Shown here: one piece after another, positions 1 through 63,044 of the stretch
Position numbering within the stretch: position 1 is the first letter of the stretch
Layout of the letters: every line of letters starts with the position of its first letter
Virus record (IMG/VR): IMGVR_UViG_3300044728_000136
DNA: 64,000 nucleotides
From: a virus
Direction: 5' to 3' (one strand)
Position numbers and translations under genes: made by a program
The notes under the pieces: generated by a model
Told to the model about the DNA's origin: nothing
Database searches by the model: none
Seen by the model: only the letters and a program-made list of their open reading frames with translations

Positions 1-737
1 TTGGTGCAATTGAATGCACCGCGCTTCCACAGCCAGTGAAGGTCATACTTGAAGTTGGCTCCTTTCAGACGGATGTAGGGACACCGCAACAAGAATTCAA
101 CCTGCTCACGGAAGGCCGGATCAGAAAGTCTCTGGCTCTCGTGCATCCGATCTATGAACCGAACGACGTCCGCTTGGCCTTTCTGATGGGTGGCTTGCAT
201 CGAGACAATGTAGGCTCCGGGGAACGGCGGATTGAACACCGGTTCCGCATACGGATCGAGCCCCAGCGTTTCCAAGTCTTTCGACAGATCCACGGGTTGC
301 CCCGTGGCTGTGTGTTGTCGCTCGATAGCTGTGCAGAGGTCGGAGAAGTCTTGGACATAACGATACTGGCCGTACACCGGAGTCCACTTGCCCGTCAGAC
401 AGTAGCGGAGGGCCAGTGTGACATCTGTCAACAGGTCCACGTAGTAGCCGTGGTCAATTTCCCCGATCTCGGGACTGTACGACACCAGCACCGGTATTCC
501 ACCTCGCATCTGGGGACGAGTCCGGTAGGACGTGGTGGTGCGATTCTTCGCGATCAGTTTTTCTTCTTGGAGCTTCTTCAGTGCATCAGTACCCAGTGCG
601 AGGATGGTCGTGGTACCTTCCGGCACGGTGTAATCGTTCACCACCTTCACAGACACTTCGGGGACCGGACGTAACACCTGAGACAGGTGGTGGAACACCT
701 TGGCCGAAGGGGTCTTCGACCACACGGTGAGAAGCAT
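1..737 (-). CDS. Family-A DNA polymerase-type protein, N-terminal part with 3'-5' exonuclease motifs (partial, continues past window start)
   Basis: Own translation of the minus frame from ATG 737-735 (AAGGAG 5 nt upstream) stays open to base 1. It contains DLETLGLDP (Exo I DxE) and GANFKYDLHWL (Exo II). It is not in the ORF track because it is open-ended; + ORF 36..674 is its antisense shadow. Confidence 0.65.
   Translation of the reverse strand, partial: MLLTVWSKTPSAKVFHHLSQVLRPVPEVSVKVVNDYTVPEGTTTILALGTDALKKLQEEKLIAKNRTTTSYRTRPQMRGGIPVLVSYSPEIGEIDHGYYVDLLTDVTLALRYCLTGKWTPVYGQYRYVQDFSDLCTAIERQHTATGQPVDLSKDLETLGLDPYAEPVFNPPFPGAYIVSMQATHQKGQADVVRFIDRMHESQRLSDPAFREQVEFLLRCPYIRLKGANFKYDLHWLWKRGAFNCT
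5..18. repeat. 14-bp quasi-palindrome copy TGCAATTGAATGCA (1 mismatch)
   Basis: Inside the polymerase-like CDS (codes AFNC). Confidence 0.7.
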
Positions 738-739
738 GC

Positions 740-1138
740 TTACTCCTTCGCGGATGACCCATCATACTCCACTTTCGTCCACTTTTCGGCTTCGTAACGG
801 AAGATACCCTTGATCGCCGGGGCGAATTCCAGCATCCGATCCTTGACCGTGGTCCCGGCAAACCCGGTCTTCTGTCCGCACTCTTTCAACGTGGTCATGT
901 GCAGGACAAACAAGAAATTCTCCTTCTCACGGATAACCACATACAGCCGGAGCGTCCGTTCAATGGTCACCCAGAACCCTAGCTCGGTCGTGCTCATGAC
1001 GTCGGACTCGACGTCAATCCGCTGGTCCACTCGCCACGGTCCCATGAATAGCGGGTGCATCTCGGAGGCCACCAGACGGCCCTTGACGAGATGCAGCGTC
1101 ACGCCCAGTGTGTCGGCGGCAAAATACGGGAGGTTCAT
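740..1138 (-). CDS. hypothetical protein
   Basis: ORF track, 132 aa. GAAGGAG lies 5 nt upstream of the ATG; ATGA overlap with the upstream stop. Confidence 0.55.
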   Translation of the reverse strand: MNLPYFAADTLGVTLHLVKGRLVASEMHPLFMGPWRVDQRIDVESDVMSTTELGFWVTIERTLRLYVVIREKENFLFVLHMTTLKECGQKTGFAGTTVKDRMLEFAPAIKGIFRYEAEKWTKVEYDGSSAKE

Positions 1139-1404
1139 GACGGCTCCTTCACCGACTTCACAGAGAGCGTCAACTTCTCTTCATCCTTGGTGATGACCAC
1201 ACCCTGACAGATCGGTTGGCCACAAAACAATCCCACGAATTCCCAGTGGCTATCGCTCCGGCCTGTACAGACCCACTCCACGTCCAAAGGGATAGCAGGG
1301 AAAAGGACATTCTTGCGAATGTCCCCCAGTGCAATTGATTGCAGGTATTTCAACTCTTCAATCCCTGCGGGCGACTCAGCCTTGAGCGTATCACGGTGCG
1401 TCAT
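1135..1404 (-). CDS. hypothetical protein (89 aa)
   Basis: Track ORF 1135..1611 trimmed to ATG 1404 (MTHRDTLK), which forms a TAATG overlap with the upstream stop. Confidence 0.5.
   Translation of the reverse strand: MTHRDTLKAESPAGIEELKYLQSIALGDIRKNVLFPAIPLDVEWVCTGRSDSHWEFVGLFCGQPICQGVVITKDEEKLTLSVKSVKEPS
1330..1343. repeat. 14-bp quasi-palindrome copy TGCAATTGATTGCA (perfect)
   Basis: Inside CDS 1135..1404 (codes LQSIA). Confidence 0.8.
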
Positions 1405-2369
1405 TACGCCTTCTCCGCGATGATCAGGTTCGTGCCCGTCATCACCGTGGCCTTCCACGCGATGCCCGTGCCGAACAGGAAGGCCCCCACCACACGCTCC
1501 ACCGGGACGCCTGCGGCTTCGAAGTGAATCGAGCCGTAGCTTTGACCCATCTTCAGTTGGAGGCCGGAATCTTCCAGCTTCTTCAGTTCCGCTGTCGGGT
1601 TGTCCGTCCACTCCGCACGGATGGAAATCGAACCCGTCTTGTAGAGCCGTGCGGCGAGCTTCACATGATCCGTCAGTGCCACCGTGTAGTAAACGCTCCC
1701 CGGGCTCGTGCCGTGAACCTTCTGTCCTACGGCCTTGGCGTTCTTCAGGTCAATCACCGCGTCCACGGGTGTAGCAGAGAAGGTATCCGATCCCCAAGAC
1801 GCCCCTGTGGGGCTCCCAGCGGGCTCCAACTTGACGTAGGCACCCGCCGCCGACAGGCTGTCAGCCACCGTCTTGGCGTCCCCTGCGGGGAAGGTACCGA
1901 GGTTCACCGGAGCATGCAACGACGCTTCAACGGTTTGCTTCGCGTCCTTCAACTTCATCGCCGTCGCTGTCATCACCGCCTTGATGACAGGGATCTTTTT
2001 TTCCAGACCCGCAAAGCCCGTCAGCAACACATACATCGCCGTTGTGGCCTTCGTGATGGGTGTCTTTGCCGTAGCAACCGGCGAGCCGTGATCCGCATGA
2101 ATCTTGTTGATCCAGTCGTAGATGAGCACCTTGTTGGAGGCGACCACGTTGACGTCCCCCATGTGCTTCATCAACGACGTCGTTCCGCACGTCAGCTTGA
2201 CATGCGAAATGGACTTGCCGCCGACGTATGCCCGCACGCCATACAGGGACACTTCGAACGTCACCCCTGTCCCCAGAAGGGCCTTGACCTTTTCGGTGAT
2301 GGGATGGATCGGCCCGAACACCGTGCTAAAAAAGACCAACTGAGCGTCTGTGCTTACCGTGAATGCCAT
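1404..2369 (-). CDS. protein with an embedded ribosomal bL12 (L7/L12) C-terminal-like domain
   Basis: Start set to ATG 2369 (AAGGAG + 8 nt). KKIPVIKAVMTATAMKLKDAKQTVEA...AGDAKTVADSLSAAGAYVKLE aligns by eye with the bL12 CTD [24 protein letters not shown]...[20 protein letters not shown]. The gene has its own promoter. Confidence 0.65.
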   Translation of the reverse strand: MAFTVSTDAQLVFFSTVFGPIHPITEKVKALLGTGVTFEVSLYGVRAYVGGKSISHVKLTCGTTSLMKHMGDVNVVASNKVLIYDWINKIHADHGSPVATAKTPITKATTAMYVLLTGFAGLEKKIPVIKAVMTATAMKLKDAKQTVEASLHAPVNLGTFPAGDAKTVADSLSAAGAYVKLEPAGSPTGASWGSDTFSATPVDAVIDLKNAKAVGQKVHGTSPGSVYYTVALTDHVKLAARLYKTGSISIRAEWTDNPTAELKKLEDSGLQLKMGQSYGSIHFEAAGVPVERVVGAFLFGTGIAWKATVMTGTNLIIAEKA

Positions 2370-2404
2370 GCTGCCCACTCCTTGAGCGAAACTGAACTAG
2401 AGAC

Positions 2405-2433
2405 AGTGTAGCACACTGCCCCCGGTTTGTCAA
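2405..2433 (-). promoter_or_regulatory. sigma70-type promoter TTGACA-17-TACACT
   Basis: Minus strand: -35 at 2433..2428, -10 at 2410..2405; about 35 nt upstream of ATG 2369. Confidence 0.6.
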
Positions 2434-2437
2434 AACA

Positions 2438-3145
2438 TTACTTCTTCTTGCCCTTCCAGAGGCTCCGGCTGGATGCCATCGGTTCGAAGGTCTTCGTGGC
2501 CTTCGTGAAGCCGTCCAGAAGCGTTCTGCGGGGCTTCTCCTTGGCCTTGGCCGTTCCCCTCGGGGGATAGAAGTCAAACGTGTGCGTGTCATCTGACGGC
2601 TTGCTGGACGTCATCTTGAGCACCCCACCGGACTTCGTAGGAGTCACCGTGGTGACATGGTAGTGCTTCATCAGGAACTGGACTTGCTCTCGCGACTCGA
2701 CGGCTCTCTTGCAGTAGTGCTTCCGGACGTATTGTATCGCATCCGTCTCGCCCAGTGCCTCAGCCACAATCGCAGAGAGCACCGTGCCTGTCCGACCGTG
2801 CCCACCGATACAGCCGACGTGGACGGACTTGCCATCCTGCAATTGACTGCACAACCACGTCACCATCTTCTTAAACCGTGACACGTTTGAGGGGACACCC
2901 ATATCGTTGATGCTGTACTGCACCTCGACTCGGGCTTGCTTCTCCCACGGATCCGACTGCCGCCCGCCCATGTCCCCCTTCTGAAGGACCACGTAGACGT
3001 CCAGATCACTCTTCACCGGGCTGAAGGCCGCTCCTCCGTAGAGCTTGCCCTTGCCCACCTTCAGCACCGGGTGTGACTCGTAACACCTGACGGCGAGGTT
3101 GGTGCCCTTGAAGGCACCTTCCATCTTGCTATCCCACGTCGCCAT
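2438..3145 (-). CDS. Cys-based dual-specificity/PTP-like phosphatase (CX5R)
   Basis: HVGCIGGHGRTG P-loop, INDMGVP acid loop and an ESREQ motif. TAATG overlap with the upstream gene. Confidence 0.7.
   Translation of the reverse strand: MATWDSKMEGAFKGTNLAVRCYESHPVLKVGKGKLYGGAAFSPVKSDLDVYVVLQKGDMGGRQSDPWEKQARVEVQYSINDMGVPSNVSRFKKMVTWLCSQLQDGKSVHVGCIGGHGRTGTVLSAIVAEALGETDAIQYVRKHYCKRAVESREQVQFLMKHYHVTTVTPTKSGGVLKMTSSKPSDDTHTFDFYPPRGTAKAKEKPRRTLLDGFTKATKTFEPMASSRSLWKGKKK
2838..2851. repeat. 14-bp quasi-palindrome copy TGCAATTGACTGCA (1 mismatch)
   Basis: Inside phosphatase CDS 2438..3145 (codes CSQLQ). Confidence 0.7.
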
Positions 3146-5534: not shown

Positions 5535-7502
5535 TTACGACACTCCCTTCAGGACTTGCAACGCCATCGGGATAGACAGCATGGACTTCGCTTGCGGCAC
5601 GTAGGTGCCGATGGACACCACGGAGGCCCCTTCGGCTTGCTTCCACGACAACACTCGGGAAATTGCGGGGTCCGTCAGATCCACCCCGTCGAGAATCAGT
5701 TCCTTGTCCGACAGCACCAGCGACCGGAGATCCGCCCCCGGCGTAATCCGAGCGAACGAGAGATGGTACTTCGACTCGGAAATCACCACGAGTCGGCTGA
5801 ACAGATCATGCTCCTTTGGCAGGGCCGCATGCAGCAGGTTGAGTAGCCGTTCGATAGGCGAGAAAGCGTCCACGAGACTCAGGAACCGGGCCTCTTCTGC
5901 GCTGGGCACCAGATCCAGATACAGCTTGCTCACGTAGGTAAGCGTCAGCAATACCTTCTTCGCCGCTTCCTCGGGATTCATCATCGTGTCCCCGAGATAC
6001 AGGAGAGCTTCCGGCATCGGAGTCGTAGGCACGTCGAAGATAATCGGCACAACCCCCAACGTCTGGGTCACCAGTGCGTTGAAATCCTTGATCACGCCGT
6101 TGGTTTGGCCGCTTACAATCGGCACCGCTTCCATCCAGATCCGCCCCGTGGCACCGTCGAGCGTCACCACGTCCGCATCCTTGAAGGATTCCAGCGTGGC
6201 TCCGACACCCACGACACAGGCTCGATCCATCCCTCGGGCCACGACTGCCGCATGACTGGTCATGCCCCCCACCATCGTGATGATGCCCTTGGCCTTCTTC
6301 ATGCCCGCGATATCTTCGGGAGTCGTTTCGTGCGTCACGAGGATGCAGGGCTCCTTGCAATTGATTGCATCTTCCTTGCTGAAGACCGGCTTGCCCGACA
6401 CGATTCCCGAGCATCCCGGGATGCCCGTGAAGGACGCGGGCTTCGTAAACTTGGGGTCAATCGACGCCAGTTGCGCGAGATCGAACTGTCTGGCCGATAC
6501 GCGACTCACCGCCGTCTTCGCATCAATCAGCCCTTGCTTCTCCATATCCACGGCAATCTTGACTGCCGCTGGGGCGCTCCGCTTGCCACTCCGCACTTGC
6601 AGGAGGTAGAGCACCCCGTCTTGCACGGTGAATTCGATATCTAGCATATCCTTCTTCAGGTTTTCCAACTCGATTACGGTCTTGAGCAACGTATCGTGGA
6701 CCGTCGAATTCCACTCAGCCATCGCAGCAAGAGGCTTCGGAGTCCGAATTCCGGCCACGATATCTTCGCCTTGCGCGTTCGGCAGGAATTCACCAGTCAC
6801 CAGCATGCCGCCCGTATCCGGGTTCCGCGTGAAGAGCACGCCTGAGCCCGAATTGTCGTTCAGGTTGCCGAACACCATCGCTTGCACGGTGCAGGCGGTT
6901 CCCCACGCTCTGTCGTAACCGAAGTCCTTGCGGTAGATGTCGGCACGTTCGTTGTCCCATGACTTGAACACAGCCTCGATTGCACCAAGCAACTGAGCCT
7001 TCGCATCCGGAAATTCGTTGCCCGTGCGAGTCGAGTAGGTGTCCAGCGCCACCTTCAGGCTGGACTCCAACGACTCACGACGGATGCCTTCCACGACCGA
7101 CCCATACATCGTGACCAGACGGTGGAAACTGTCTGCGAAGCACTTCGGCCCCAGACGGTTGACCCACTCCGGCATGTTAGAGCCGTCGATCCCCACGTTT
7201 AGGATCGTGTCCATCATGCCCGGGCAGGACACGCGAGCCCCGCTCCGAACGGATAGCAACGGCATGTAGCCGAAGTGCGCTTCCAGCTTCGCGAGATACG
7301 CGGGGAGGGCCTTGGCAATGAGCTTCATCGTGCTCTTGGGCTTCTTGTCGTACTCAGCCCATACGGACGTCGGAATAACAAACCCGGGCGGCACAGACAC
7401 GCCTTGATTGGAGAGCCACAGGAGGCCCGCCCCCTTGCCGCCCAACTCTTCGACTGAGCCGGTCGCTGTCTCGTTTTCGATTCCGAAGGGAAAGAATTGC
7501 AT
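5535..7502 (-). CDS. PPDK-like phosphohistidine dikinase lacking the PEP/pyruvate TIM-barrel domain
   Basis: PPDK ATP-grasp motifs GGKGAGLLWL, RSGARVSCPGMMDTILNVG, NAQGEDIVAGIRTP and LDIEFTVQDGVLYLLQVRSGKR, plus the GGMTSHAAVVARG swivel His. The last ~190 aa show no barrel motifs. ATG 7502 (GGAGTGGAG + 7 nt) is preferred over 7520. Confidence 0.75.
   Translation of the reverse strand: MQFFPFGIENETATGSVEELGGKGAGLLWLSNQGVSVPPGFVIPTSVWAEYDKKPKSTMKLIAKALPAYLAKLEAHFGYMPLLSVRSGARVSCPGMMDTILNVGIDGSNMPEWVNRLGPKCFADSFHRLVTMYGSVVEGIRRESLESSLKVALDTYSTRTGNEFPDAKAQLLGAIEAVFKSWDNERADIYRKDFGYDRAWGTACTVQAMVFGNLNDNSGSGVLFTRNPDTGGMLVTGEFLPNAQGEDIVAGIRTPKPLAAMAEWNSTVHDTLLKTVIELENLKKDMLDIEFTVQDGVLYLLQVRSGKRSAPAAVKIAVDMEKQGLIDAKTAVSRVSARQFDLAQLASIDPKFTKPASFTGIPGCSGIVSGKPVFSKEDAINCKEPCILVTHETTPEDIAGMKKAKGIITMVGGMTSHAAVVARGMDRACVVGVGATLESFKDADVVTLDGATGRIWMEAVPIVSGQTNGVIKDFNALVTQTLGVVPIIFDVPTTPMPEALLYLGDTMMNPEEAAKKVLLTLTYVSKLYLDLVPSAEEARFLSLVDAFSPIERLLNLLHAALPKEHDLFSRLVVISESKYHLSFARITPGADLRSLVLSDKELILDGVDLTDPAISRVLSWKQAEGASVVSIGTYVPQAKSMLSIPMALQVLKGVS
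6356..6369. repeat. 14-bp quasi-palindrome copy (perfect)
   Basis: Inside the dikinase CDS (codes AINCK). In minus sense it is followed directly by AGGAG. Confidence 0.8.
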
Positions 7503-7795: not shown

Positions 7796-9651
7796 CAGTG
7801 TGCTCCTTCACTACTTCCGCCGCCAATGTACTCCATATGGACTTCGTAGACTTCCACCGGCTTCAGTGTAGCATCTCCGGTCTGGTAGGTATAGCCCTTC
7901 CTGACCTTCGTCACCCGGAACCGTGCGCCACTGCCCAACAGGATCTCGCTTTCCATCCGATAATCCTTGCTGTCGAGATCTCTGGCGTTCACGGTGGGTT
8001 TTTGTGTATAATCTGATATCGTGTAATCCTCGGGCTTCGTTGTGCCGTCAGCGGTCCACTCCGGATGTTCGAACACAGAGGGGTCTTGCACCCGGGGAAA
8101 ATCATGCCTCACCCGTCGTGCTGCCTCAACCGGGGCGACCTTCGTGCCCTTCGGGAGGGTGATGTAGAATCGCACGGCTGTCCCCACTTCATCCTGATGA
8201 TCCACCAGTGAATTGGGTTTCCCACCATATCGGTGATAGATACTCTCCCACTTCCCAAGTGCAGGATAGCTACGGGCTCGATTGCCTGCATCTCCGAGCA
8301 TCGTGGATGTGAATCCTTTTTCTTCCCAGATTTCCTGTTCCAATGCCGCGAGATCTTCTGCCGACACCCCGGGCAGATAGGCTCCCCGCTCCACCACCAT
8401 CGCCTCATCCAGCACCACGCCACGGTTCGCAATCAGGTCATCAATCCTGTCGGCCTTCTCGGTCACCTCGGCCAGACGTTCTGGATCGGGCACTGGTCCC
8501 TTCACCACCCAATGTGCTTGGAGATACCCCGGTCCACCCGGCGTGTCCTTCGGGATGTTCTCAAAGCTCCACGAGTAGCGAAACTCAGGGCCTTCTGGGG
8601 GGATCATCTTCTGCACCGCTTCACCGCTTGGTGCAGCTTGCACCTTCGCATACTCTTCGGGCGTCAGCGGACGGATACGCCCCTCCGTTGTGGGGGGCTT
8701 GCCTCGACGGAAGTCGTTGATCTGTCGGTAGGTAAACCCCGCATAGCTACTCAGAACATTAGCGTCCTCATAGGTCAGCGTTTCTTTGGCCCATTTCGCT
8801 CCCGGCCCCTTCTCATGCCACTGATAGCCTTCCTCACTGGTGAATTTACGTCCCACCACGGGCTCTGTGGGTGTGCCTTCTCCTACCCAGTGCTCTGTGC
8901 CTCCACTGCCCTTGACCCATCTACCACCTTGAGAAGTGCCCTTCGGACCACGGGGCTGGTTGATATCGAATTTCTTCGCGCCACTTCTCGTCGGAATCGC
9001 CACGTAAATTCGGTCTGTCTTCCGCACCACCTTCACCGGATCCAGATCTTCTAACGGAGATTCCCAATCCGCATACTGTTGTTTGGGGGCACCGGGAGCA
9101 CCCGGAATTCTCTGTTGCGATCCTCGTGGCCCTAGCACCTCTAACACATCCTCTAATCGGTACTGACGAATCTCCTGAATCAATTCAGGGGGAACCGTCT
9201 CTGTGCTAGACATCTCCGTGCTGATAGCATGGGGCCACGATCCGGGTGGACCAAACACACGTTTACCAGCAGGTTTGAAGTATTGATTCGCCTCTGGCTT
9301 AAACACAATCACCGTGATTGTATCCGCCGACGCATCAGATGACAAAGCGGCATAGCTGATCGCCACTTTCTCACTGGTGGACGCAAAGGCTTTTCCAGCC
9401 ACCACACCGCTATCTGTATCGATATCACTGAGCGGCTTCAGACCCTCTTTCAGAATCTTCTCAGCAAACTCATCCGACGTGCCATGATACAGAGCAAACT
9501 GACCTTCCTTGTCCCGTGGATGCTTGGCTTCATCAAATTTGTGTGCAATTGATTGCACAATTTTCAGCTTGGATTTCTCTTTGACAGAATACCCAGTCTG
9601 GTGGGGAGCCTCAGCATGTGATTGGCCAATTTCAACCGTGAGATCAGCCAT
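7795..9651 (-). CDS. polyvalent (likely virion-delivered) protein with a C-terminal R-S-E ADP-ribosyltransferase domain
   Basis: YAGFTYRQINDFRRG, VVERG, FTSTML (STS) and YRMESEILLGSGARFRV (ExE), plus HPRDKEGQF and QPRGPKGTSQGGRW linker motifs. Start at ATG 9651 (MADLTVEIG) overlaps the upstream stop. Confidence 0.7.
   Translation of the reverse strand: MADLTVEIGQSHAEAPHQTGYSVKEKSKLKIVQSIAHKFDEAKHPRDKEGQFALYHGTSDEFAEKILKEGLKPLSDIDTDSGVVAGKAFASTSEKVAISYAALSSDASADTITVIVFKPEANQYFKPAGKRVFGPPGSWPHAISTEMSSTETVPPELIQEIRQYRLEDVLEVLGPRGSQQRIPGAPGAPKQQYADWESPLEDLDPVKVVRKTDRIYVAIPTRSGAKKFDINQPRGPKGTSQGGRWVKGSGGTEHWVGEGTPTEPVVGRKFTSEEGYQWHEKGPGAKWAKETLTYEDANVLSSYAGFTYRQINDFRRGKPPTTEGRIRPLTPEEYAKVQAAPSGEAVQKMIPPEGPEFRYSWSFENIPKDTPGGPGYLQAHWVVKGPVPDPERLAEVTEKADRIDDLIANRGVVLDEAMVVERGAYLPGVSAEDLAALEQEIWEEKGFTSTMLGDAGNRARSYPALGKWESIYHRYGGKPNSLVDHQDEVGTAVRFYITLPKGTKVAPVEAARRVRHDFPRVQDPSVFEHPEWTADGTTKPEDYTISDYTQKPTVNARDLDSKDYRMESEILLGSGARFRVTKVRKGYTYQTGDATLKPVEVYEVHMEYIGGGSSEGAH
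9544..9557. repeat. 14-bp quasi-palindrome copy (perfect)
   Basis: Inside CDS 7795..9651 (codes VQSIA). Confidence 0.8.
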
Positions 9652-12418: not shown

Positions 12419-15400
12419 GAACCGTCTCCAAGCAACATACGTGCAAGCCATCACTTGTCACCAACACCCGAGTTTTCAAGTCATACCCCAGCATCGGCAC
12501 GCTCGGCGGGTGAACTGGGAGGCTTAGCTGCGTCACACGAAGACTAGCAGATGTCACAGCCATCTCGGTGCCAATTGTAACACTCGCTGCCAGATAACGC
12601 ACCCGGATTCCACTGACCAGACAAGTGGTGGGTGGAAGCACTCTCCCCACAGATGGGGGAAAGACTCGGGTAGTCGGCTGGATGCCCCCGACAATGATGA
12701 TCCCGATCTCGGGTTCAACAGTCGGAGGATAGAGAACATCGGTCGAGTCAATAAATCCGGCAATGAACCCTGTGCGAATTGCGGGAGCAAAAATCTGCGT
12801 GGTAGAAGCCACGGGCACCACTTGCACCGTGACCGAGATGGACGGCGCAAATAATTGCGCGGTAGAACTGATCGTGATCCCGCTGACAAAGAGCGTGACG
12901 GTAGGTGGGTAGACCTGAACCGTCGAGACAATTCGCACCCCGGTAATGAACGTCAGAGGAGACACAGACGGAGCGAACCGCTGTGACGTAGATGGAATCG
13001 TTGCCGTAATAACTCGGAGACTGACGCTTGGCGGATAGACTTGGGTGGTAGTGCTTACCGTTATGCCACTGATCAGACGCGATATAAACGGGGCGAAAAT
13101 CTGAAGTGATGAACTAATTATTCCGGTAATGAGCGATCCGGCTCCAACCAATGCGGGCGGGAATATCTGAGCCGTAGTAGACCGATAAACCCCTCCAACA
13201 GAGGCCAACGTCGTAATCAGCGGAGGATTGCAATTGATTGCACTCGGGCGGGTCGGGCCTCCAATCGTGATCGCTCCGGTAGTGATGGTGGGCGCAAATC
13301 TCTGAAGTGTCGAACCAATGTTCGGGACACCTAAGACCCCTGCCAACAACACAGTAGGATCGAACAGTTGCGTACTTTTCACCCACACGGGCATCGTGAC
13401 TGTGGCGGCTCCTACAGCCACGAATGGGGCAAAGACTTGCTGGGTGGTCGCTCGTGTAGCAGTAGTAACGTTCAGAGCCACGGACAGCGGAAAGACTCCG
13501 CTGCTACTCCCTATCGTTGCTCCTGAAACCAGCGGGATAACAAACGGGGCGTAGACTTGGCTCGTGCTGGGGCGTGTCCCTCCGATGATCGTTGCTACCC
13601 CCACCGCAACTGCGGGTGGGTAGACTGCAATTGCGGTCGGACAGTGACTAGCGGTGACCGTGGCCACTCCCGGGGTGAGGCTGGGCGCGTTGACCACACT
13701 GGTCAACGGTCTGGTGCCTGTCGTAACGCTCAGAGCCGTAGACGGGGGAAAAGCTCCGCTCGTGACCCCTATGGTCGCTCCGGCAACGTGTGGGGCTGTC
13801 CGTGGGGCAAACGTCTGGGAAGTGGCTCCTATCGTCGGGAGGAGAACCGTGACAGTCCCCGGAGCCACTGTGGGAGCGTACCGGGCTCCTGTCGCCGCAA
13901 CGGTACTGCCGCCTATCGTGATTGCCCCTGCCGCGACCGTCAGTGCAAACAATTGCACCGTCGAGGCACGAATGCCCGTCGCAATTGAGATCGCCCCCAC
14001 CCCAATTGAGGCCGCGAACATCTGTACAGTGCTAGGCCGATGGGCTCCGGTAACTGTGACTGGGCCAGACGCTATCGTGGGAGCGTATAGCTGGATAGTT
14101 GTGGGTCGTGTCGCTCCTGTGACCGTGACCGGTCCTGTCGTGACCGTGTGGGCGTAAAGAAGATTCGTGCTCGGGATGAACGCCTGAGCAATCGCATCGA
14201 TCTGTGGAACAAAAGCCGGTCCAAACGCTGAAGGCTCAAACGCATTCCCAGTATAGACAGGAACCGTGGGGGCAAAAAGTTGTGCTGTCGAACCAATCAA
14301 CGCGCCCGTGATGTTCTGCGCGACAATCTCAACCGAAAGATTTCCTAGACGAATATAATCAGCGTTATCGTAAGCAGTGTAATGGCCTCCATGTCCCGGC
14401 TGACCCGTATAGGCAACACTACTACTCGATTGATCCGTGCCAATCTGCGTAAACGCACCAGCACCAACTTTCTTATACGCACGGAGCGTCGTACCTTCAA
14501 CTTCTAATCGCAGCCAGTTCCCAACCGCAACGGACGCTCCCGTCGTTTGCAGAACAACAAAGTTGCCACTATCGATACGTCCAATAGTGATGGAGCCACC
14601 CCACCCATCACCCCAATACAACACCAACCCATAAAACGAAGCGTAGTCCGTTCCGGATCCACGAAGGAAAATAAATTGGTTGTACCCTGCGGTTGCTGAC
14701 CCTGCCCCTATTTTGATTTCAATAAACTGATCTTGATCAAACGCATTGACGCTAGGATTCCAGCGCATGGCTTGAATGCCGCCAAACGCCACAGGCGTCG
14801 ATTGCCCACTGAGATTCTTCAGGGCTCCATTAATTGATTGCCACGGCGGATCAGGCAGCGGGTTCGCATCCGGCTTGGTGCTGAAGTCATACTCGACTTG
14901 TCCTCCACCCCCTCCACCTGTGGCTAACGCCACAATCGGAGCCCGCACCACCAATCCAGAAGCAATGAACGCCCCAGCAATTCCTTCTATCGGTATTCCG
15001 ACTGCGGCTCGGAACGTCAACACCGTGCCTGCGATAGCGGCACCATACGTCGGTTGAGGCGTCCACGTCGGCGTCAGACTCGTCATCGCTGAGCCCGTCG
15101 CATTGACGCGATAGGCGGCTGATGCACCGAACGACGTACCGGCCACACCGATGTCGGACTGGGCAATCGTACTGGTGGGCAGGGTGACACTGACCCACGA
15201 CGGTGGAGAGCCGATGTACTGACCAAGGCCAGTCACCAACAGATCGCCTGCATCGAGTGTGGCAATCGTGCCCACCGCTACGGGCACATCGGACCCAGAA
15301 TAGTTGCTCAGCCCCGACTGTGCAATGAGCGGATCTGCGGTACGATCCACCCCAGCAAATCCCAGCACAATCAACGTGGAGTAGTTGTCCGTGCCGGGGT

Positions 15401-19086: not shown

Positions 19087-19100
19087 TGCAATCAATTGCA
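19087..19100. repeat. 14-bp quasi-palindrome copy (perfect)
   Basis: Intergenic, between the TAA of 19103..19429 and the SD of 18453..19073. Confidence 0.8.
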
Positions 19101-20163: not shown

Positions 20164-20512
20164 GCCTCCCCTAGACACACGACGACCAAGAGTACACCGT
20201 ACCCTTGGTCGTCGCAACTACTTTCTTGACCTGTTTTCTAGCTCACGGCCTCTCGCCTACAGCGGCCAGCGCGAGGACTTCTGTGCATCCCGTGCTTCAC
20301 AGCCCACCCGCATTAGGGCTCCACACCGGGGACAAACCCGGATACCTTGCTGTATACTCTTTATCAGCTTCATTGCCATCGAAGGCTCCACCGATACAGA
20401 CCAACAAGGGCCTTACCCAAAACCATTTAATATCCACATACCAACATTTTTTTCTAGTCTTACTTCATTGTCTATCACATTGTCGTCACTCCGTGCAATC
20501 AATTGCACCTGT
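20164..20512 (-). other. ~350-bp region without an ORF of 60 aa or more on the coding strand; structured leader or possible ncRNA
   Basis: Contains a motif copy, an SD followed by ATG-TGA, a 10-bp hairpin (20181..20190 / 20204..20213) and CCGGG..CCCGG near 20335. The plus-strand track ORFs here look non-protein-like. Confidence 0.3.
20494..20507. repeat. 14-bp quasi-palindrome copy (perfect)
   Basis: Intergenic, 6 nt after the stop of 20513..20692, followed by GGAGTGA. Confidence 0.8.
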
Positions 20513-23586: not shown

Positions 23587-23600
23587 TGCAATTGATTGCA
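23587..23600. repeat. 14-bp quasi-palindrome copy (perfect)
   Basis: Intergenic; abuts the SD of 23374..23577. Confidence 0.8.
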
Positions 23601-26914: not shown

Positions 26915-26928
26915 TGCAATCAATTGCA
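26915..26928. repeat. 14-bp quasi-palindrome copy (perfect)
   Basis: Intergenic; abuts the AAGGAG of the RHH gene. Confidence 0.8.
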
Positions 26929-30163: not shown

Positions 30164-30177
30164 TGCATTCAATTGCA
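30164..30177. repeat. 14-bp quasi-palindrome copy TGCATTCAATTGCA (1 mismatch)
   Basis: Its internal TGA is the stop codon of 30169..31086, and it abuts the -35 box. Confidence 0.7.
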
Positions 30178-39767: not shown

Positions 39768-39781
39768 TGCAATTGAGTGCA
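39768..39781. repeat. 14-bp quasi-palindrome copy TGCAATTGAGTGCA (1 mismatch)
   Basis: Lies between -10 box 39789..39794 and ATG 39763, at about +1 to +15 of the predicted transcript. Confidence 0.7.
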
Positions 39782-41953: not shown

Positions 41954-41967
41954 TGCAGTTGATTGCA
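41954..41967. repeat. 14-bp quasi-palindrome copy TGCAGTTGATTGCA (1 mismatch)
   Basis: Intergenic; 4 nt 5' of AAGGGAGTGA of 41506..41937. Confidence 0.7.
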
Positions 41968-48267: not shown

Positions 48268-48753
48268 TCAAACTGGTGAATTTTCCCAGCCCACTGTCAC
48301 CCCTTTGACAGTGAGGATGTTATGCCACCCTAGCTGAGCCATTTGCGCCAGTGCAAATGCATCCACGATATCGTGCGAAGCACTCGCAAATCCCCAACGT
48401 ATCTTGACCACGGACGCCATTGTGTCTTTATCAGCCTTCCCAGAGCCTGTGGTCCACTTCTTCAGGACCGTGGGAGGCACCTCGACCCATGATACCCCTC
48501 GTTCACGGAGCATCATGCGAATCACGGTGCCCACCTCGACCAAGGTCACGAATGACTGAATATTTTTGCAATATGCGTACCTCTCGATGGCAGCGAAGGA
48601 GGGATTCCACGCATGGAGAAGACTGGCGATATTGTTGGCAATCAATTGCAGACGCAAGAAGCCTCGTTCATTGGGGATTTCCAGTGTCTTACCACGATCC
48701 TCACCATCACCGACAAGGGCTAATCCAGTGCAGGTAGCCGCGTCAATTCCCAT
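48268..48753 (-). CDS. ruvC: RuvC-like Holliday junction resolvase
   Basis: MGIDAATCTGLA (first Asp), AIERYAY (Glu) and SHDIVDAFALA (His/Asp). Start trimmed to ATG 48753. Confidence 0.7.
   Translation of the reverse strand: MGIDAATCTGLALVGDGEDRGKTLEIPNERGFLRLQLIANNIASLLHAWNPSFAAIERYAYCKNIQSFVTLVEVGTVIRMMLRERGVSWVEVPPTVLKKWTTGSGKADKDTMASVVKIRWGFASASHDIVDAFALAQMAQLGWHNILTVKGVTVGWENSPV
48637..48650. repeat. 14-bp quasi-palindrome copy GGCAATCAATTGCA (1 mismatch)
   Basis: Inside the ruvC-like CDS (codes LQLIA). Confidence 0.65.
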
Positions 48754-51515: not shown

Positions 51516-52752
51516 CGTCATCATCCTCTGCAATTGACTGCACGGTGACAGGCGTCCCGGGCGGCACGTCCTTGGGTGAGTAATCCGCTTCTTCCACCAA
51601 CAACAACTTGTCCTTGTACTGCTCCAACACCATGGCTTGGAGTTGCGACTGGAACACCTTGTCCTTGTAATACTTATCCGAAACAGCACTCAATGTCGCA
51701 AACCACATTGGGTCGGAGCTAACCTCGACTCCATGCACCATCCACCCGCCTTGGCTCCCCTTCGCCTTCTCCAAGAGTCCAAAGGATTGCAGATGACCCT
51801 TCACCATCTGAAAACTCTCTGTTTCGCCCACTTCTAAATCATCATGGGCATGGACACAGAGCTTGAAGTCAAAGGCGACCGCTCGCACGGGCACCTTGGC
51901 CTTCTTGATGGTCACCCCGGTGTCTTTGAACATTAGGGTGTTAGAAGCTTTATCGATGATGTTGGAGGCTCTGAAGCGCACTCGGAGGCTGGACAGAAAC
52001 TTCTGAGCCTCACCCCCCGGCATCGTCTCCGGATCCCCAAACTTGACGCCGGGATTGTAGCGCGTCTGATTGATGAGGATGACACAGGGATCATGGTCCC
52101 GCTTCTGCTCCTCGCAGAATGCCACCATGAGTTTGTTCACCATGCGCTTGATAAGGAGGGCCGATGTGCCAATGTCGTAGTTCTCAACGCTTTGGGCTAT
52201 CTCCTTGGAAGCGATGAGTCCAGCCATTGAATCCACCACCAGAATAGCCACATCATCAGCCCTAACGAGAGAATCAGTGAGATCAATGGCTTCTTCGCCA
52301 TAGCCTGCTTGCACCACCAGTAACTCTGCGGTGTTGACACCCATGCGTTCGGCCCAAATGGGATCGAAGCTCTGCTCAATGTTAACCCAGACGGCTTTGT
52401 TACAGGGTGGGGGTTGCTTCTGGGCACTAGCAACAGCACGAAGGGCCACGTTGGTCTTGTTGCTGGACTCCGGCCCATACACGATGCTGTAGCGACCACA
52501 GGGGAATCCCCCGCCCGTATAGAAGTCGAATTCGAAGATGCCCGTAGGGAGACGACGAACAATGGGGATCTTATTCCCGGCGACAATGACTTTTTCGCCT
52601 TTGTCTTTACGAATACTCGCAAGAACCGTATCCAACGAGCCACCAAGAAGCCGTGGTTCAGTTTTCTTCTTGAGCGAAGGACTGCTGGCCACCACAACGT
52701 CTTCTTCTATCGTGGGCACCACCTTGGGTGTTGCTTTGAGGGTCAGGGCCAT
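51508..52752 (-). CDS. recA: RecA-family recombinase
   Basis: Walker A YGPESSNKT and Walker B AILVVDSMAGL; 414 aa with an acidic C-terminal tail. Confidence 0.75.
   Translation of the reverse strand: MALTLKATPKVVPTIEEDVVVASSPSLKKKTEPRLLGGSLDTVLASIRKDKGEKVIVAGNKIPIVRRLPTGIFEFDFYTGGGFPCGRYSIVYGPESSNKTNVALRAVASAQKQPPPCNKAVWVNIEQSFDPIWAERMGVNTAELLVVQAGYGEEAIDLTDSLVRADDVAILVVDSMAGLIASKEIAQSVENYDIGTSALLIKRMVNKLMVAFCEEQKRDHDPCVILINQTRYNPGVKFGDPETMPGGEAQKFLSSLRVRFRASNIIDKASNTLMFKDTGVTIKKAKVPVRAVAFDFKLCVHAHDDLEVGETESFQMVKGHLQSFGLLEKAKGSQGGWMVHGVEVSSDPMWFATLSAVSDKYYKDKVFQSQLQAMVLEQYKDKLLLVEEADYSPKDVPPGTPVTVQSIAEDDDDD
51529..51542. repeat. 14-bp quasi-palindrome copy TGCAATTGACTGCA (1 mismatch)
   Basis: At the 3' end of the recA-like CDS (codes VQSIA); abuts the GAGG SD of the next gene. 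Confidence 0.7.
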
Positions 52753-55991: not shown

Positions 55992-56954
55992 CTAGTCATT
56001 GCACTCAATTGCATAGTCGATTCGGTCCTTCAGATAGGCCACCCCACAGTCATCGGGATCTTTCGCCCCCTCATCAATCCAAATATACCGATACTCCAAT
56101 CCTAGCTGCCGACAGTGCTTGGCATACACCAGCGTGCTTTGATATCCGGCCTCGTCACGATCTGGGATATGGATCACCCGACCACAATCTCCAAGCTTCC
56201 TCATCTTCTCGATAGTGGGTTTCGCTGTGAGAGCCGCCACCGTCTTCGGAAAGGCTTGCGCGGTCTTCCACAAATCGAACTGGCCTTCGACCACCACCAC
56301 TGGCCCATCATGGTTCAGCACCTGTTCGCCATACCACACGAGACGTGCATTGTTCACCCCTTGGAACGTGTAGTCATGGTGCTTGTGCGGGGCGTCATCA
56401 TGGATAGACCGACCTCGGGCACCTGCCAAACGTCCAAACACATCCCAATAGGGACACACGATCATCTGCCGCTTGGGATCATATCGAAGGTTATACACCT
56501 CCAACGTTGTAGGACTGATACCCCTCGATGCCAGATAGACAGCGGCCTCGGCCACCCAAAAGGCCCGTTGGAAACTTTCGAGCCAGTACGGAGGCCACTC
56601 AATGAAGGGCTGCACCGTCTGAGTAAACTCTCCATAGGGCGGCAAGGGAGTGACATACTCTTCATCCGTCAACAGCGCATGGCACACCGCAAAGTCGTAG
56701 TCCGGAGAGTTATGACTGTATAGCTCGATGCACTGCACCAGTTCTTCCGCACTCCCCTGCCGACACGCGAAACACAGGAAGTGACTGCGGCCTCCCGGGG
56801 TGATACTCACGCCGAAAGAGGGATTACTATCCTTGTGTCCTTTATGAGTCCAGCGAGCCAAGGGACATGTGGACTCGATCCATCCATTGTCCTTCACTCG
56901 TATCTGTGACACGCGGAGTGCCGTCAGAAATGCCACCACTTGCTCAGCCGTCAT
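55992..56954 (-). CDS. dnaG: DnaG-type DNA primase (zinc finger + Toprim)
   Basis: CPLARWTHKGHKDSNPSF..FLCFAC zinc motif, VVVVEGQFDLW and IPDRDEAG Toprim. Confidence 0.7.
   Translation of the reverse strand: MTAEQVVAFLTALRVSQIRVKDNGWIESTCPLARWTHKGHKDSNPSFGVSITPGGRSHFLCFACRQGSAEELVQCIELYSHNSPDYDFAVCHALLTDEEYVTPLPPYGEFTQTVQPFIEWPPYWLESFQRAFWVAEAAVYLASRGISPTTLEVYNLRYDPKRQMIVCPYWDVFGRLAGARGRSIHDDAPHKHHDYTFQGVNNARLVWYGEQVLNHDGPVVVVEGQFDLWKTAQAFPKTVAALTAKPTIEKMRKLGDCGRVIHIPDRDEAGYQSTLVYAKHCRQLGLEYRYIWIDEGAKDPDDCGVAYLKDRIDYAIECND
56000..56013. repeat. 14-bp quasi-palindrome copy TGCACTCAATTGCA (1 mismatch)
   Basis: In the last codons of the primase (codes AIEC); 12 nt upstream of -35 box 55982..55987. 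Confidence 0.7.
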
Positions 56955-57975: not shown

Positions 57976-58438
57976 CCTTCCGTACTGCTCGTAGTGTACG
58001 CCCTCCCGGCTTTTCGATCAAATAATGTTTTAGCTCAAATTCGGAGAGTAATTTTCGCAGAGGGGTAATCGCCACATCAATCACTGACGCTGTGGCCGCT
58101 GGCCCAAACTTCTCCAACAGGTCATGGAGCAATTCCAGTGGGGCTGTGACTTCGGCTACCTTGGTGCGCTCGGAGAATTCAATCTCTCCCTCGGGACTCG
58201 TGAAGATGGCAGGCTTCGTCTCGTCCATCGTCTCGTTGGCAATTGATTGCAACTGCTTGCGGAGATCATCCATGCGCTTGGTGAGACTCTTGACTTCGAA
58301 GTAGACGAATTTTCGATGAAGCTCGATGTATTCCGACACCAACGTTTCCACAGCGGTAGGATCCGCAGACGGCTGCACGAGAGGAATCACCGGGACGACT
58401 GCTACCGGTGGGGTCTTCACCACCATGATCAAGGCCAT
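57971..58438 (-). CDS. hypothetical protein (155 aa)
   Basis: Trimmed to ATG 58438 (GGGAG + 7 nt). Confidence 0.45.
   Translation of the reverse strand: MALIMVVKTPPVAVVPVIPLVQPSADPTAVETLVSEYIELHRKFVYFEVKSLTKRMDDLRKQLQSIANETMDETKPAIFTSPEGEIEFSERTKVAEVTAPLELLHDLLEKFGPAATASVIDVAITPLRKLLSEFELKHYLIEKPGGRTLRAVRKV
58248..58261. repeat. 14-bp quasi-palindrome copy GGCAATTGATTGCA (1 mismatch)
   Basis: Inside CDS 57971..58438 (codes LQSIA). Confidence 0.65.
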
Positions 58439-60868: not shown

Positions 60869-61312
60869 TTAAGTCTTTACCCACTGATTAGTGCCGACAA
60901 CCGCAGGAGTAGTGAGTGTGCGTTCAACGCTCCACCCTTGATAACTCAACCGATGACGAAGTGTTTCTCGATGCACACCAATCTCCTCTGCCCATGCAGG
61001 CAAAGATTGTGTTTTTCCATTAAATTTCAGCATACGAGTATTAGATCTGTTTCGTTGTTGTTCGGATCGTGTGGCCCATTTACAATTCCCCGGCTCATAC
61101 CCTTTTGTGTTGTCGATACGCTCTAACGTAGTTTCTTTGGGACGTTCACCCATGTCCTCTAGAAAATTCGTAAACACTAACCATCGATCACACATCCCCA
61201 GTTGGGCATAACGTAATCGCCACTTACATCGGACTTTCATCGATGCCCATGATTTATAAGTTGACGTGTAAGACATACCATGTCTTGATGCGTGCTCTGA
61301 CGCATAGGCCAT
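60869..61312 (-). CDS. homing-endonuclease-like protein, paralog of 48762..49250
   Basis: YKSWASMKVRC..FTNFLEDMGERP..YEPGNCKWATRSEQQRNR, plus a C-terminal HTH-like LPAWAEEIGVHRETLRHRL. Confidence 0.6.
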   Translation of the reverse strand: MAYASEHASRHGMSYTSTYKSWASMKVRCKWRLRYAQLGMCDRWLVFTNFLEDMGERPKETTLERIDNTKGYEPGNCKWATRSEQQRNRSNTRMLKFNGKTQSLPAWAEEIGVHRETLRHRLSYQGWSVERTLTTPAVVGTNQWVKT

Positions 61313-61845: not shown

Positions 61846-61853
61846 CGTACTCC

Positions 61854-62978
61854 TTACGGAGATTCGAAGCTCCCTTGTGGGGGTGTGAGATCGGCCATGA
61901 ACTGGTCAAACTCCGCTTGTGTCATCTGATGAGGCGTCTCATCAGGTGCAACCAATTGCATGGGGGGCGTCACCTCGGGGGAGGGGGGTGGCGTCATGAC
62001 CTGTAGCAGGGACTTCTCTAGCAATTCCACGGCCACATGGTGATGGGCTAAGAGGTAGCCGGTATGTGGTTCCTCGGGCCAACTCCCATGCCCTGCTCGG
62101 AACCCTGCGGTGCTCGCAAACTGCCACCAATGCTCAATAGCATAGGTGAGGACCGGGCGTACCGCGATGCCCGCGTCACCCAACTTCTTGGACAACAGCT
62201 TCAACTGTCCGGTTTCCTTGGCGGTCAGGGCTTTCTGAAAGCCTTCCTTCACCAGCGCACACCGGGACTTCCAGAAGCTCGGCAGACTCCCCTCGACTGC
62301 CGCCGTGTGTGCCTTCAGGGCGTCTGCTGCTTTCATAAACCCCCCTACCCTGAGTGTACCAGTTTCCGCTACCTCAGCCGTAGCTATATTTTCTTCTCTC
62401 TCTGTCTCTACTGTTTCTATTGTCTTTACTGTCTTGTTCTTCTCTTCTCTCTCCCCCGAGATCACTTCTGGATCTCTCTCCGTCGCTCTTGTGTTTACAC
62501 AAAGAACTTCTTTATCTTCTCTCTCTGCTTGTACTCTCTGTACACGGGTACGGTCCTTGGGGGACCATTGCTCTGGTCCGTGGAGGACTTTACTCGGGCG
62601 GTCAGGGATGTCGGCGGCACGAATGCGGTCCAGACAGAGCCTCACATGGGTCTGGGTGAGACGTTGGAACTGCATTCGGCGCACTTCCACGATCCCCTTG
62701 TTCTTGAGGATGGTGATCGCCCGTTTGTACTGCTTCAGGGTGAGCCCTGTCTCCGCCATCCACTGGACTCGCGTCTTGGCGATGTAGCGGTGTCCGTCCT
62801 CCCGGCACAGGATGCCCCCCTTGAGCTTCCCAGTGGCGTCAGGAAGGGACCAGAAGACAATCTGGGCCAGTAGGGTGCCGGTCACCACGTCCCCCGCCAA
62901 GACGATACAGTCCAGTCGCCCGGGATACCATGCGTGTTCCACCATGGGTTTCTCCATCCGTACCAGACACAAGGCCAT
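61854..62978 (-). CDS. hypothetical DNA-binding/replication-initiator-like protein
   Basis: Trimmed to ATG 62978 (GGAG + 5 nt). LTLKQYKRAITILKNKGIVEVRR is wHTH-like, followed by an acidic middle region. Confidence 0.5.
   Translation of the reverse strand: MALCLVRMEKPMVEHAWYPGRLDCIVLAGDVVTGTLLAQIVFWSLPDATGKLKGGILCREDGHRYIAKTRVQWMAETGLTLKQYKRAITILKNKGIVEVRRMQFQRLTQTHVRLCLDRIRAADIPDRPSKVLHGPEQWSPKDRTRVQRVQAEREDKEVLCVNTRATERDPEVISGEREEKNKTVKTIETVETEREENIATAEVAETGTLRVGGFMKAADALKAHTAAVEGSLPSFWKSRCALVKEGFQKALTAKETGQLKLLSKKLGDAGIAVRPVLTYAIEHWWQFASTAGFRAGHGSWPEEPHTGYLLAHHHVAVELLEKSLLQVMTPPPSPEVTPPMQLVAPDETPHQMTQAEFDQFMADLTPPQGSFESP
61947..61960. repeat. 14-bp quasi-palindrome copy TGCAACCAATTGCA (1 mismatch)
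   Basis: Inside CDS 61854..62978 (codes MQLVA). Confidence 0.65.
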
Positions 62979-63030
62979 GATTGCTCCATGGACGAAAAGC
63001 CCTCTGGGGGGTGAGCCCAGAGAGCCATTG

Positions 63031-63044
63031 TGCAACTGATTGCA
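63031..63044. repeat. 14-bp quasi-palindrome copy TGCAACTGATTGCA (1 mismatch)
   Basis: Intergenic, ~50 nt upstream of ATG 62978. Confidence 0.65.

Follow-up and report, generated by a model that had tools for sequence, protein, structure and literature searches.

Why does a phage genome hold the same short near-palindrome at intervals of a few kilobases, within essential genes as well as between genes? The question is raised by a 64,000-nucleotide stretch of the IMG/VR virus record IMGVR_UViG_3300044728_000136 (the window, by which we mean this whole stretch), in which copies of a 14-bp sequence, TGCAATTGATTGCA, had been pointed out in an initial annotation. Scanning the window with this pattern, at no more than one mismatch (n = 23) and then at the two- and three-mismatch levels, we found nine perfect copies, 14 with one mismatch and two with two mismatches; the number of matches at the 0/1/2/3 mismatch levels is 9/14/2/8, an abrupt drop, the three-mismatch level corresponding to background. 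All 24 copies of the initial list were recovered, including the same nine perfect copies at the same coordinates, the 14 one-mismatch copies and the two-mismatch copy at 34371, but the list was incomplete, as a second two-mismatch copy (45270-45283) was missing from it. In 100 dinucleotide-preserving shuffles the number of matches with at most one mismatch was 0, against 23 in the real sequence. The G+C content of the window is 53-59%, and that of the motif 36%.

The intragenic copies were compared with two further kinds of shuffle. Shuffling the order of codons within genes left 0 intragenic copies, and shuffling synonymous codons with the proteins unchanged left on average 0.8 of 15, so that the enrichment is due neither to codon usage nor to protein sequences, and it remains real against the codon-preserving control that the initial annotation had proposed. 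The peptides encoded by the motif are themselves in excess: QSIA is seen six times in the window proteins against 0.18 expected from amino-acid composition, QLIA three times against 0.25, and AINC twice against 0.03. This over-representation, 12- to 60-fold, indicates that the peptides are owed to the DNA word, and not the DNA word to the peptides. The array is real: it departs strongly from randomness, and selection acts on it as DNA.

Several metagenomes contain contigs that in part match the window at 100% identity, and the genome is about 119 kb long. It encodes a large terminase, a replication and recombination module (O-like initiator, DnaB, primase, SF2 helicase, RecA-like protein, Cas4-like exonuclease and two resolvases) and a PPDK-like kinase module, with nearly all genes on the minus strand and one divergent open reading frame (ORF), at 32483-32953 on the plus strand. 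Megablast of 25 kb against phages gave no match, and neither did tblastn with the 884-residue protein. The nearest known phages are Delepquintavirus and relatives, which infect Proteobacteria; those described, at no more than 45-56% amino-acid identity, include the Stenotrophomonas phages DLP5, DLP3 and Summit, the Rhizobium phages RHph_TM16 (TM16 below) and Y1_11, the Rhodobacter phage RcZahn, and Vibrio phages such as PG28.

The copies are evenly spaced. For the window and DLP5, the coefficient of variation of the gaps comes to 0.43-0.49, where random placement gives 0.94-0.96 (P 2.5e-4 or less), with a mean gap of 2.6-2.9 kb and a longest gap of no more than 6 kb in both. Within the window the gaps run from 715 to 5143 bp, matching the 0.7 to 5.1 kb given earlier, and the array goes on into the flanks of the same phage, with six further copies in 17 kb. 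Two thirds of the copies are intragenic and, as the initial annotation had it, they are read in all three frames; copies lean toward gene ends, and those that are not wholly coding amount to 26-36% where 6.5-7.3% would be expected (P 3e-4 and 4e-5), an intergenic enrichment of about 5-fold. The equal use of the two orientations of the centre was confirmed (12:12 among the 24 copies listed at first), and counted by sense strand the ratio is 13:12 for the 25 copies of the window; in DLP5 it is 13:23, both orientations occurring although the genes of that phage all point one way. The 25 copies are the following.

5..18, plus strand: one mismatch, TGCAATTGAATGCA, inside a DNA polymerase gene running off the window.
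1330..1343, plus strand: perfect, inside gene 1135-1404, codons LQSIA.
2838..2851, plus strand: one mismatch, in PTP-like gene 2438-3145, CSQLQ; the same codons in DLP5 read CNQLQ; not in RcZahn or TM16.
6356..6369, plus strand: perfect, in PPDK-like gene 5535-7502, AINC; the same codons in DLP5 read AIDC with the centre flipped; AVEA in RcZahn and TM16.
9544..9557, plus strand: perfect, inside gene 7795-9651, VQSIA.
13229..13242, plus strand: perfect, inside the 1546-codon gene 12411-17051, AINC.
13944..13957, minus strand: one mismatch, inside gene 12411-17051.
19087..19100, minus strand: perfect, intergenic, 13 nt ahead of the start of 18453-19073.
20494..20507, minus strand: perfect, intergenic, followed only by ATG-TGA.
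23587..23600, plus strand: perfect, intergenic, 9 nt ahead of the start of 23374-23577.
26915..26928, minus strand: perfect, intergenic, 15 nt ahead of the start of 26636-26899.
30164..30177, minus strand: one mismatch, supplies the TGA stop of 30169-31110 and adjoins the promoter -35 box TTGACAAA.
34371..34384, minus strand: weak copy with two end mismatches, inside gene 34062-35750.
35351..35364, minus strand: one mismatch, inside gene 34062-35750.
38282..38295, minus strand: one mismatch, inside methyltransferase gene 37718-39184.
39768..39781, plus strand: one mismatch, between a -10 box and the start of terS-like ORF 39374-39763.
41954..41967, plus strand: one mismatch, intergenic, 16 nt ahead of the start of 41506-41937.
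45270..45283, minus strand: weak copy with two mismatches, inside gene 43050-45704, new to the list.
45630..45643, minus strand: perfect, inside gene 43050-45704, VQLIA.
48637..48650, minus strand: one mismatch, in RuvC-like gene 48268-48762, LQLIA; same codons in DLP5, other residues in RcZahn and TM16.
51529..51542, plus strand: one mismatch, in the final codons of the RecA-like gene, 14 nt ahead of the next ORF.
56000..56013, minus strand: one mismatch, in the final codons of the primase gene, 12 nt ahead of a -35 box.
58238..58251, plus strand: one mismatch, inside gene 57971-58438; lost in close relatives, an example of turnover.
61947..61960, minus strand: one mismatch, near the 3' end of the O-like replication initiator gene 61854-62978.
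63031..63044, plus strand: one mismatch, intergenic, 52 nt upstream of the O-like initiator gene.

The use of the TGA within the 30164 copy as a stop codon, and the promoter contexts described for 39768, 30164 and 56000, were seen as previously annotated. Seven copies had been placed directly 5' of Shine-Dalgarno sequences, and five of them (19087, 23587, 26915, 41954 and 51529) do lie shortly before ORF starts. The other two precede no cistron: the copy at 6356 sits at codon 378 of the 655-codon PPDK-like gene, so that its 'Shine-Dalgarno' is fortuitous, and the one at 20494 has only an ATG-TGA after it. The number of copies with both outer TGCA intact, given as 20 of 24, came to 21 of 24 in our recount, the exceptions being 34371, 48637 and 58238.

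The site itself is a dyad with a pyrimidine-purine centre, the centres of its half-sites being one helical turn apart. The flanks of 280 distinct sites, drawn from many phages, are flat past about 2 nt, with a weak preference at the two adjoining bases, and one-mismatch copies are never compensated. The centre can flip between TCAA and TTGA at one and the same site, as in the PPDK gene of the window and of DLP5. Likewise, the TCAA centre at 5-18 of the window is TTGA at 11121-11134 of locus L209, from a relative that is 98.8% identical, a change for which two adjacent substitutions are needed; such flips suggest rapid passage through TA or CG intermediates. In relatives the centre can be TA or CG, which, taken together with the flips, indicates that a pyrimidine-purine step is required and not a direction.

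Conservation of the copies can be followed at single codons. Copies lie at identical codons in the PTP-like, PPDK-like and RuvC-like orthologues of the window and DLP5, proteins that are 39-48% identical, and at those positions RcZahn and TM16 have unrelated residues; judging from these alignments, the copies impose amino acids that more distant relatives do not have. The copy in the RuvC-like gene (48637) shows at most one change in 11 of 11 aligned relative loci, with flanks that are 63% identical. Over relative loci of about 72% DNA identity, identity comes to 89.5% in the site windows and to 71.8% in the aligned 14-mers as a whole (P < 2e-4), the RuvC copy dominating this signal. DLP5 and TM16 likewise have a copy at identical codons of their ParB-like genes (VQSIA versus LQQIA), in the variant proper to each phage. 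Turnover of copies is seen as well, for example at 58238. The copies at orthologous codons, the shuffles and the peptide excess strongly support the earlier proposal that conservation is at the nucleotide and not at the peptide level.

Related phage genomes, in which the initial annotation had suggested looking for the motif, carry it or sister motifs in many cases, and the array marks a large group of 80-120 kb siphophages. DLP5 has the identical 14-mer (26 perfect and nine one-mismatch copies in 96.5 kb), RcZahn the more relaxed TGCARTTRAYTGCA (about 24 copies), TM16 (G)TGCAACATATTGCA(C) (23 copies, 17 on the gene strand), the Rhodobacter phage RcTiptonus the perfect palindrome TGCAATCGATTGCA (seven perfect and three variant copies in 50 kb, against 1.2 expected), and Vibrio phage PG28 TGCARTTAAYTGCA (21 copies in 50 kb, where 0.8 would be expected). 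Scanning IMG/VR with the exact 14-mer returned multi-copy contigs of 39-64% G+C, and the same or sister motifs are present in dozens of contigs of 37-64% GC from IMG/VR and from metagenome-assembled genomes (MAGs). At the helicase and terminase loci of relatives TGCA-N6-TGCA is 10- to 30-fold enriched in most, and the commonest 5+4+5 dyad is TGCAA-N4-TTGCA. Further lineage variants are TGCAGACATCTGCA, TGCACTTGAGTGCA, TGCACGCGCGTGCA, TGACATTAATGTCA, CGCAATTGATTGCG and TGAAAACGTTTGCA, the latter asymmetric in seven of eight copies; it is used by locus L187, where one copy is TGCAAACGTTTGCA. The outer TGCA...TGCA is held across the group and the inner bases differ by lineage, both halves varying together (TGCAG..CTGCA, TGCAC..GTGCA, TGACA..TGTCA). 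In 12 listed variants, G2/C13 is found in all 12 and A4/T11 in 11 (not in TGACAT-TA-ATGTCA), and T1/A14 is usually kept.

In a few relatives the motif is lost or decayed. One close relative, IMGVR_UViG_3300046782_000129 (loci L127 and L221), with 74-80% identity in helicase and terminase, has decayed copies only; its full sequence, of 117.5 kb, represents a natural 'loss' lineage. Two MAG contigs attributed to Acidobacteriaceae/Saprospiraceae (L300 and L301) are terL relatives with 9 and 10 TGCAA-N4-TTGCA in 16-22 kb, so either the group reaches beyond the Proteobacteria or the binning is wrong. The portal has more than 600 homologues.

What, then, could the copies be for? A dyad, half-sites one helical turn apart, a flexible centre and co-varying halves are the signature of a dimeric sequence-specific protein, and from this we infer binding at the copies, a candidate binder and its possible purpose. 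In our view the most likely mechanism, to which we give an even chance, is that the copies are an array of protein-binding sites with a genome-wide role. A sequence-specific protein would bind the copies as a symmetric dimer, contacting the outer TGCA(A) half-site on either side of a deformable pyrimidine-purine centre; selection would hold about one site per 2.7 kb along the whole chromosome, intergenic where possible and otherwise within codons, and the array would serve a genome-wide function and not particular promoters. The most concrete version, which we put forward tentatively and which by itself falls well short of an even chance, is loading of the Noc/ParB type, where, as in Noc-NBS, ParB-parS or KorB-OB systems, the sites would load or nucleate a protein reaching a few kb from each site. 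If the loaded protein travels a few kb per site, full coverage is obtained only without long gaps, which would explain the spacing. Proteins of the ParB family are loaded at palindromes of 13-16 bp, those of Noc and ParB measuring 14-16 bp, and the sites of Noc and KorB are many, dispersed and also found inside genes. The array resembles these systems in its short palindromic site with many copies on the replicon, and in that most relatives encode a gene of the family, several with a motif copy inside it.

The candidate is a protein of 284-310 residues (gp114 in DLP5, where TerS is gp113) encoded just upstream of terS in DLP5, RcZahn and TM16, whose profile matches Noc (7nfu, E 7e-8) and ParB (6t1f, E 4e-7) over the N-terminal and DNA-binding regions, and which also matches Pfam ParB_N; in RcTiptonus and PG28 the gene at the same position is annotated as a ParB-like or nucleoid occlusion protein. 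In several lineages this ParB/Noc-like gene contains a motif copy about 710-835 nt in, which in several relatives places the copy some 60-150 nt ahead of terS. Among the IMG/VR terL loci, those with a match of at least 46% identity to the protein are all motif-rich, and motif-poor loci are all without it (about 2e-4 by a rough Fisher estimate that ignores kinship). A wider and rather doubtful proposal is that a spreading Noc/ParB-like protein, or a substitute for it, coats or organises the whole genome from these sites, as a phage 'chromatin' or self-identity system widespread in the group. Such a system could be used in protection against nucleases and defence, in segregation of the phagemid, or in telling phage from host DNA, and the need for full coverage would then be strong enough to rewrite codons in essential genes.

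Several points weigh against binding by a Noc/ParB-like protein. No ParB-family gene was found in the window and about 30 kb of flanks taken from identical or 98% identical contigs (about 94 of the about 119 kb) by tblastn, Pfam, two scans of the collection with a ParB alignment and a partial genome walk, whereas one was met in DLP5, RcZahn, TM16, RcTiptonus and PG28. The copies of the window are still conserved, and a methyltransferase occupies the place of the ParB-family gene between terS and terL. Motif-rich loci without a ParB/Noc-like gene within 10 kb of terL also exist (L238, L241, L246, L256, L257 and L265). The protein of the relatives has GGHHR where ParB and Noc have GERR, which makes nucleotide-dependent clamping uncertain; unlike in the known systems, no partner ParA is evident, and the site sequence is unlike parS or NBS. 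The association between gene and motif could reflect shared ancestry. Finally, perfect copies are 9 of 25 in the window versus 26 of 35 (at most one mismatch) in DLP5, and this degeneracy, together with the decayed relative, may fit the loss of the binder, or a different, more tolerant one.

Among the roles suggested in the initial annotation, a site for a dimeric phage DNA-binding protein fits best, but the RHH and MerR-like proteins that it had named as candidates fail the phyletic test, as does the methyltransferase. Neither the RHH gene (26636-26899) nor the methyltransferase gene (37718-39184) has a homologue in 13 close relatives or in DLP5, RcZahn and TM16, all of them motif-bearing. 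The MerR-like gene (53234-53683) is absent from the motif-rich loci L145-147, L149, L153 and L155 and from RcZahn and TM16. The O-like initiator (61854-62978) is a weak candidate, too divergent for a site that does not vary: phages with the very same 14-mer have initiators of just 30-38% identity. Motif-poor lineages have the gene too, and the copies form no iteron-like cluster. The HNH genes and the phrog_6247 'topoisomerase' were rejected as partners, being accessory and not shared. Pfam and PHROGs scans of about 100 window proteins detected no LacI, XRE or ParB-type DNA-binding domain, and comparison of the window with the motif-decayed loci L127 and L221 gave no gene that is present in all motif-keeping relatives yet missing there.

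Other explanations have to be weighed against an array of loading or binding sites. Dispersed repressor operators or roadblocks, of the stoperator or P1 C1 kind, could silence or truncate one-way transcription, for example in a phagemid prophage. We consider this unlikely, although the genes lie on one strand apart from the ORF at 32483, about 19 sigma70-like promoters are spread along them, copies are enriched between genes with three or four adjoining promoters, even spacing would cap the length of read-through transcripts, and DLP5 is temperate and kept as a phagemid (PMC5834331). Most copies are intragenic and far from promoters, the sole divergent control region (32395-32483) is without a copy, and no repressor gene common to the motif-bearing phages was found. 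The stoperators of Cluster A phages (L5, Bxb1) are tens of repressor sites that are spread over a phage genome and act away from promoters (excerpts of PMC9283540), and are asymmetric, monomer-bound and oriented with transcription (excerpts of PMC4351075 and PMC9283540), unlike the dyad found here, which has no orientation bias in the window (13:12), is mostly intragenic and has no matching repressor. Recognition by the small terminase, such that packaging could start at many places on phage and not on host DNA, is quite improbable to our minds. A copy does lie 4 nt upstream of the terS-like ORF of the window, and DLP5, TM16 and several other relatives have one some 60-150 nt ahead of terS; nearly all members of the group have a terS-like gene, and RcZahn is reported to be circularly permuted, with headful packaging and no defined ends (PMC8601537). 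However, a processive headful mode does not explain why the copies should be evenly spaced, the pac sites known so far occur singly and are not short dyads, the nearest copy is inside terL in RcTiptonus and PG28, motif-poor relatives retain terS, and the terS-like ORF of the window is without the N-terminal, DNA-binding half of the family.

Sites for a host type IIA topoisomerase (gyrase or topo IV), spaced to relieve the supercoiling from one-directional transcription, would account for the same motif in phages of unrelated hosts through a conserved host enzyme, and a dyad with a non-palindromic 4-bp core suits a symmetric enzyme cutting with a 4-bp stagger. Strong gyrase sites (Mu SGS, REP/BIME, E-site) share the dyad, the 4-bp non-symmetric core and a G-N-A ... 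T-N-C skeleton, and the Mu SGS is a phage precedent for a topoisomerase site needed genome-wide; the consensus core of E. coli gyrase is GGTAT-NNNN-ATACC (excerpts of PMC6379681). A stagger at positions 6-9 gives -4G, -2A, +6T and +8C, the reported requirements of topo IV and gyrase (PMC3814380), so that positions 2, 4, 11 and 13 of the motif fit, those held in 12 (G2/C13) and 11 (A4/T11) of the 12 variants. We nevertheless regard this as very unlikely, because the disfavoured -1A/+5T of the motif gave 0% cleavage with pneumococcal topo IV, -1 T being preferred (PMC3814380), because gyrase sites are long and degenerate with flanks of roughly 10-bp periodicity, where the 280 sites here have flat ones, and because the rule fits only two of five arm positions, about 1 in 16 by chance. 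The exact 14-mers and lineage-specific variants point instead to a specific, co-evolving binder. Programmed nick or cut sites, or palindromic Chi-like signals for the phage RecA/UvsX-like protein, Cas4-like exonuclease, helicases and resolvases, have a slim chance in our estimation: phages of the group have a complete recombination module and a ligase, even spacing would set a limit to resection, and a palindrome works from either direction. Known Chi sites, however, are short asymmetric sequences with a set orientation, a dimeric nuclease would cut a palindrome on both strands, and the HNH genes of the window are accessory, two paralogues having no match in DLP5, RcZahn and TM16. Localised nicks do occur in other phage groups, and nick sites as in T5-like phages had been among the suggested roles, but the known nick motifs (T5, phiKMV, and TACT/RTGMC of tf in the tf/LUZ24 group) are asymmetric, one-stranded and unevenly placed (PMC3517423), which disfavours this role for a near-palindrome that occurs on both strands and in both centre orientations.

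Two other roles in the initial annotation, targets of the methyltransferase at 37718-39184 and short RNA hairpins or processing signals before cistrons, strike us as barely credible. Each copy contains one CAATTG and two TGCA, the window does encode this N6/N4 methylase with a large insert, and several copies stand just 5' of Shine-Dalgarno sequences. Yet no motif-bearing relative has a homologue of the methylase, CAATTG and TGCA are, apart from the motif, roughly as frequent as composition or a Markov model predicts, and the TM16 variant is without CAATTG. As for RNA, the hairpin has just -2.5 kcal/mol (z about -1), no better than shuffles, its mismatches are uncompensated, the sense strand has copies in either orientation, and two thirds of the copies are intragenic.

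Among known systems, operators of the LacI/GalR family, such as that of PurR (GCAAACGTTTGC) or those of CytR with half-sites TGCAA/TTGCA, bear a general likeness to the motif, being 14-bp TG-AA...TT-CA palindromes kinked at a central pyrimidine-purine step; unlike in those systems, the window proteins showed no LacI-type helix-turn-helix. Of the precedents, the 17-bp dyad repeat of Cluster O mycobacteriophages, TGTTCGGNNNCCGAACA, comes closest; its function is unexplained, and it is present in more than 30 copies through a roughly 70-kb siphophage genome (PMC4351075). Both arrays have inverted arms around a short non-symmetric centre without orientation preference, with copies between and within genes. 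They differ in sequence (TGCAATTGATTGCA here), in hosts (Actinobacteria there) and in phage lineage, which is unrelated. In Cluster O the copies are more crowded toward one end of the genome, and only about a third of them fall within genes; here the copies are evenly spaced and two thirds of them intragenic, and they persist at orthologous codons and form with their variants a family that spans a very wide phage group. A literature search showed the 14-mer and five variants to be absent from the relevant papers in the searchable library, and the passages on DLP3 or RcZahn that matched the search terms do not mention the motif.

The window has further features of its own. About 20 copies of TTGACAAA, each followed about 17 nt later by a TAnnnT box (2433-59256), look like strong sigma70-type promoters (for example at 59256, 55987, 47449, 39817, 31987, 28940, 22247, 7646, 4343 and 2433). 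All are on the minus (sense) strand except the one at 32483, which is back to back with 32469; this pair is the sole divergent control region and drives the sole plus-strand gene, 32483-32953. The 14-mer was rejected as a promoter part, TTGACAAA-N17-TAnnnT being a separate motif of which just three or four of about 20 examples adjoin a copy. The terS-like gene looks split: 39374-39763 corresponds to no more than the C-terminal ~100 residues of the family, whose middle part has a weak match in 39959-40333; a promoter and a motif copy separate the two, and the N-terminal part was not found. The methyltransferase 37718-39184, between terS and terL, is unique to this phage.

The module at 1404-7502 contains the PPDK-like kinase (5535-7502), PTP-like phosphatases (2438-3145 and 4340-4882) and unknown genes. 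It is mostly conserved in DLP5, RcZahn and TM16, and the annotation of PG28 has a similar set. Because DLP3 DNA is resistant to 15 restriction enzymes (PMC7326821), this module, with the sugar-nucleotide genes of the relatives, may act in DNA hypermodification. Three HNH endonuclease genes are present (27356-27817, 48762-49250 and 60869-61312); the latter two are paralogues with 48% identity, inserted in the replication module and without a DLP5 counterpart, and look like free-standing homing endonucleases. The gene at 30169-31110, found in one close relative only, encodes 313 residues with a full-length match to PHROG 6247 'DNA topoisomerase' (E 4e-106) and no Pfam match. A small ORF right after the RecA-like gene (51294-51515) has an Acb2/Tad1 hairpin domain (Pfam PF24729), which suggests a nucleotide sponge directed against CBASS or Thoeris. 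Just past window position 1, the DNA polymerase has 1047 residues and an intein signature in window-identical contigs (L207, 10402-13545) and 799 residues in the 98.8% identical relative (L209, 10402-12801), an intein presence/absence polymorphism. Other large proteins are one of 618 residues with weak ADP-ribosyltransferase/PARP matches (7795-9651), one of 1546 residues without a family match (12411-17051) and, past the portal (L327/L330), polyvalent-type proteins (ART-PolyVal, PI3/PI4-kinase-like) and a protein of 1661-1880 residues with a 2'-5' RNA ligase domain.

Dispersed arrays as such have precedents in the Cluster O repeats, the stoperators and the site arrays of Noc and KorB. What is distinctive here is the even spacing, the copies in orthologous codons of essential genes, and a motif family that co-varies across very different hosts, and the array is an unusually clear case of non-coding constraint shaping protein sequences. 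TGCA-N6-TGCA, with its 10- to 30-fold enrichment, provides a simple signature for recognising the group in metagenomes, and explaining the array could shed light on the Cluster O repeats. The sequence of the site is known base by base, there is a named candidate protein, and isolates exist (DLP3, DLP5, Summit, PG28, RcZahn, RcTiptonus and TM16) in a group that includes therapeutic candidates against Stenotrophomonas and aquaculture Vibrio phages. To our knowledge, no genome-wide DNA-protein system has been described for these phages; if the copies are loading sites, they would represent such a system, conserved throughout a large and environmentally common phage group.

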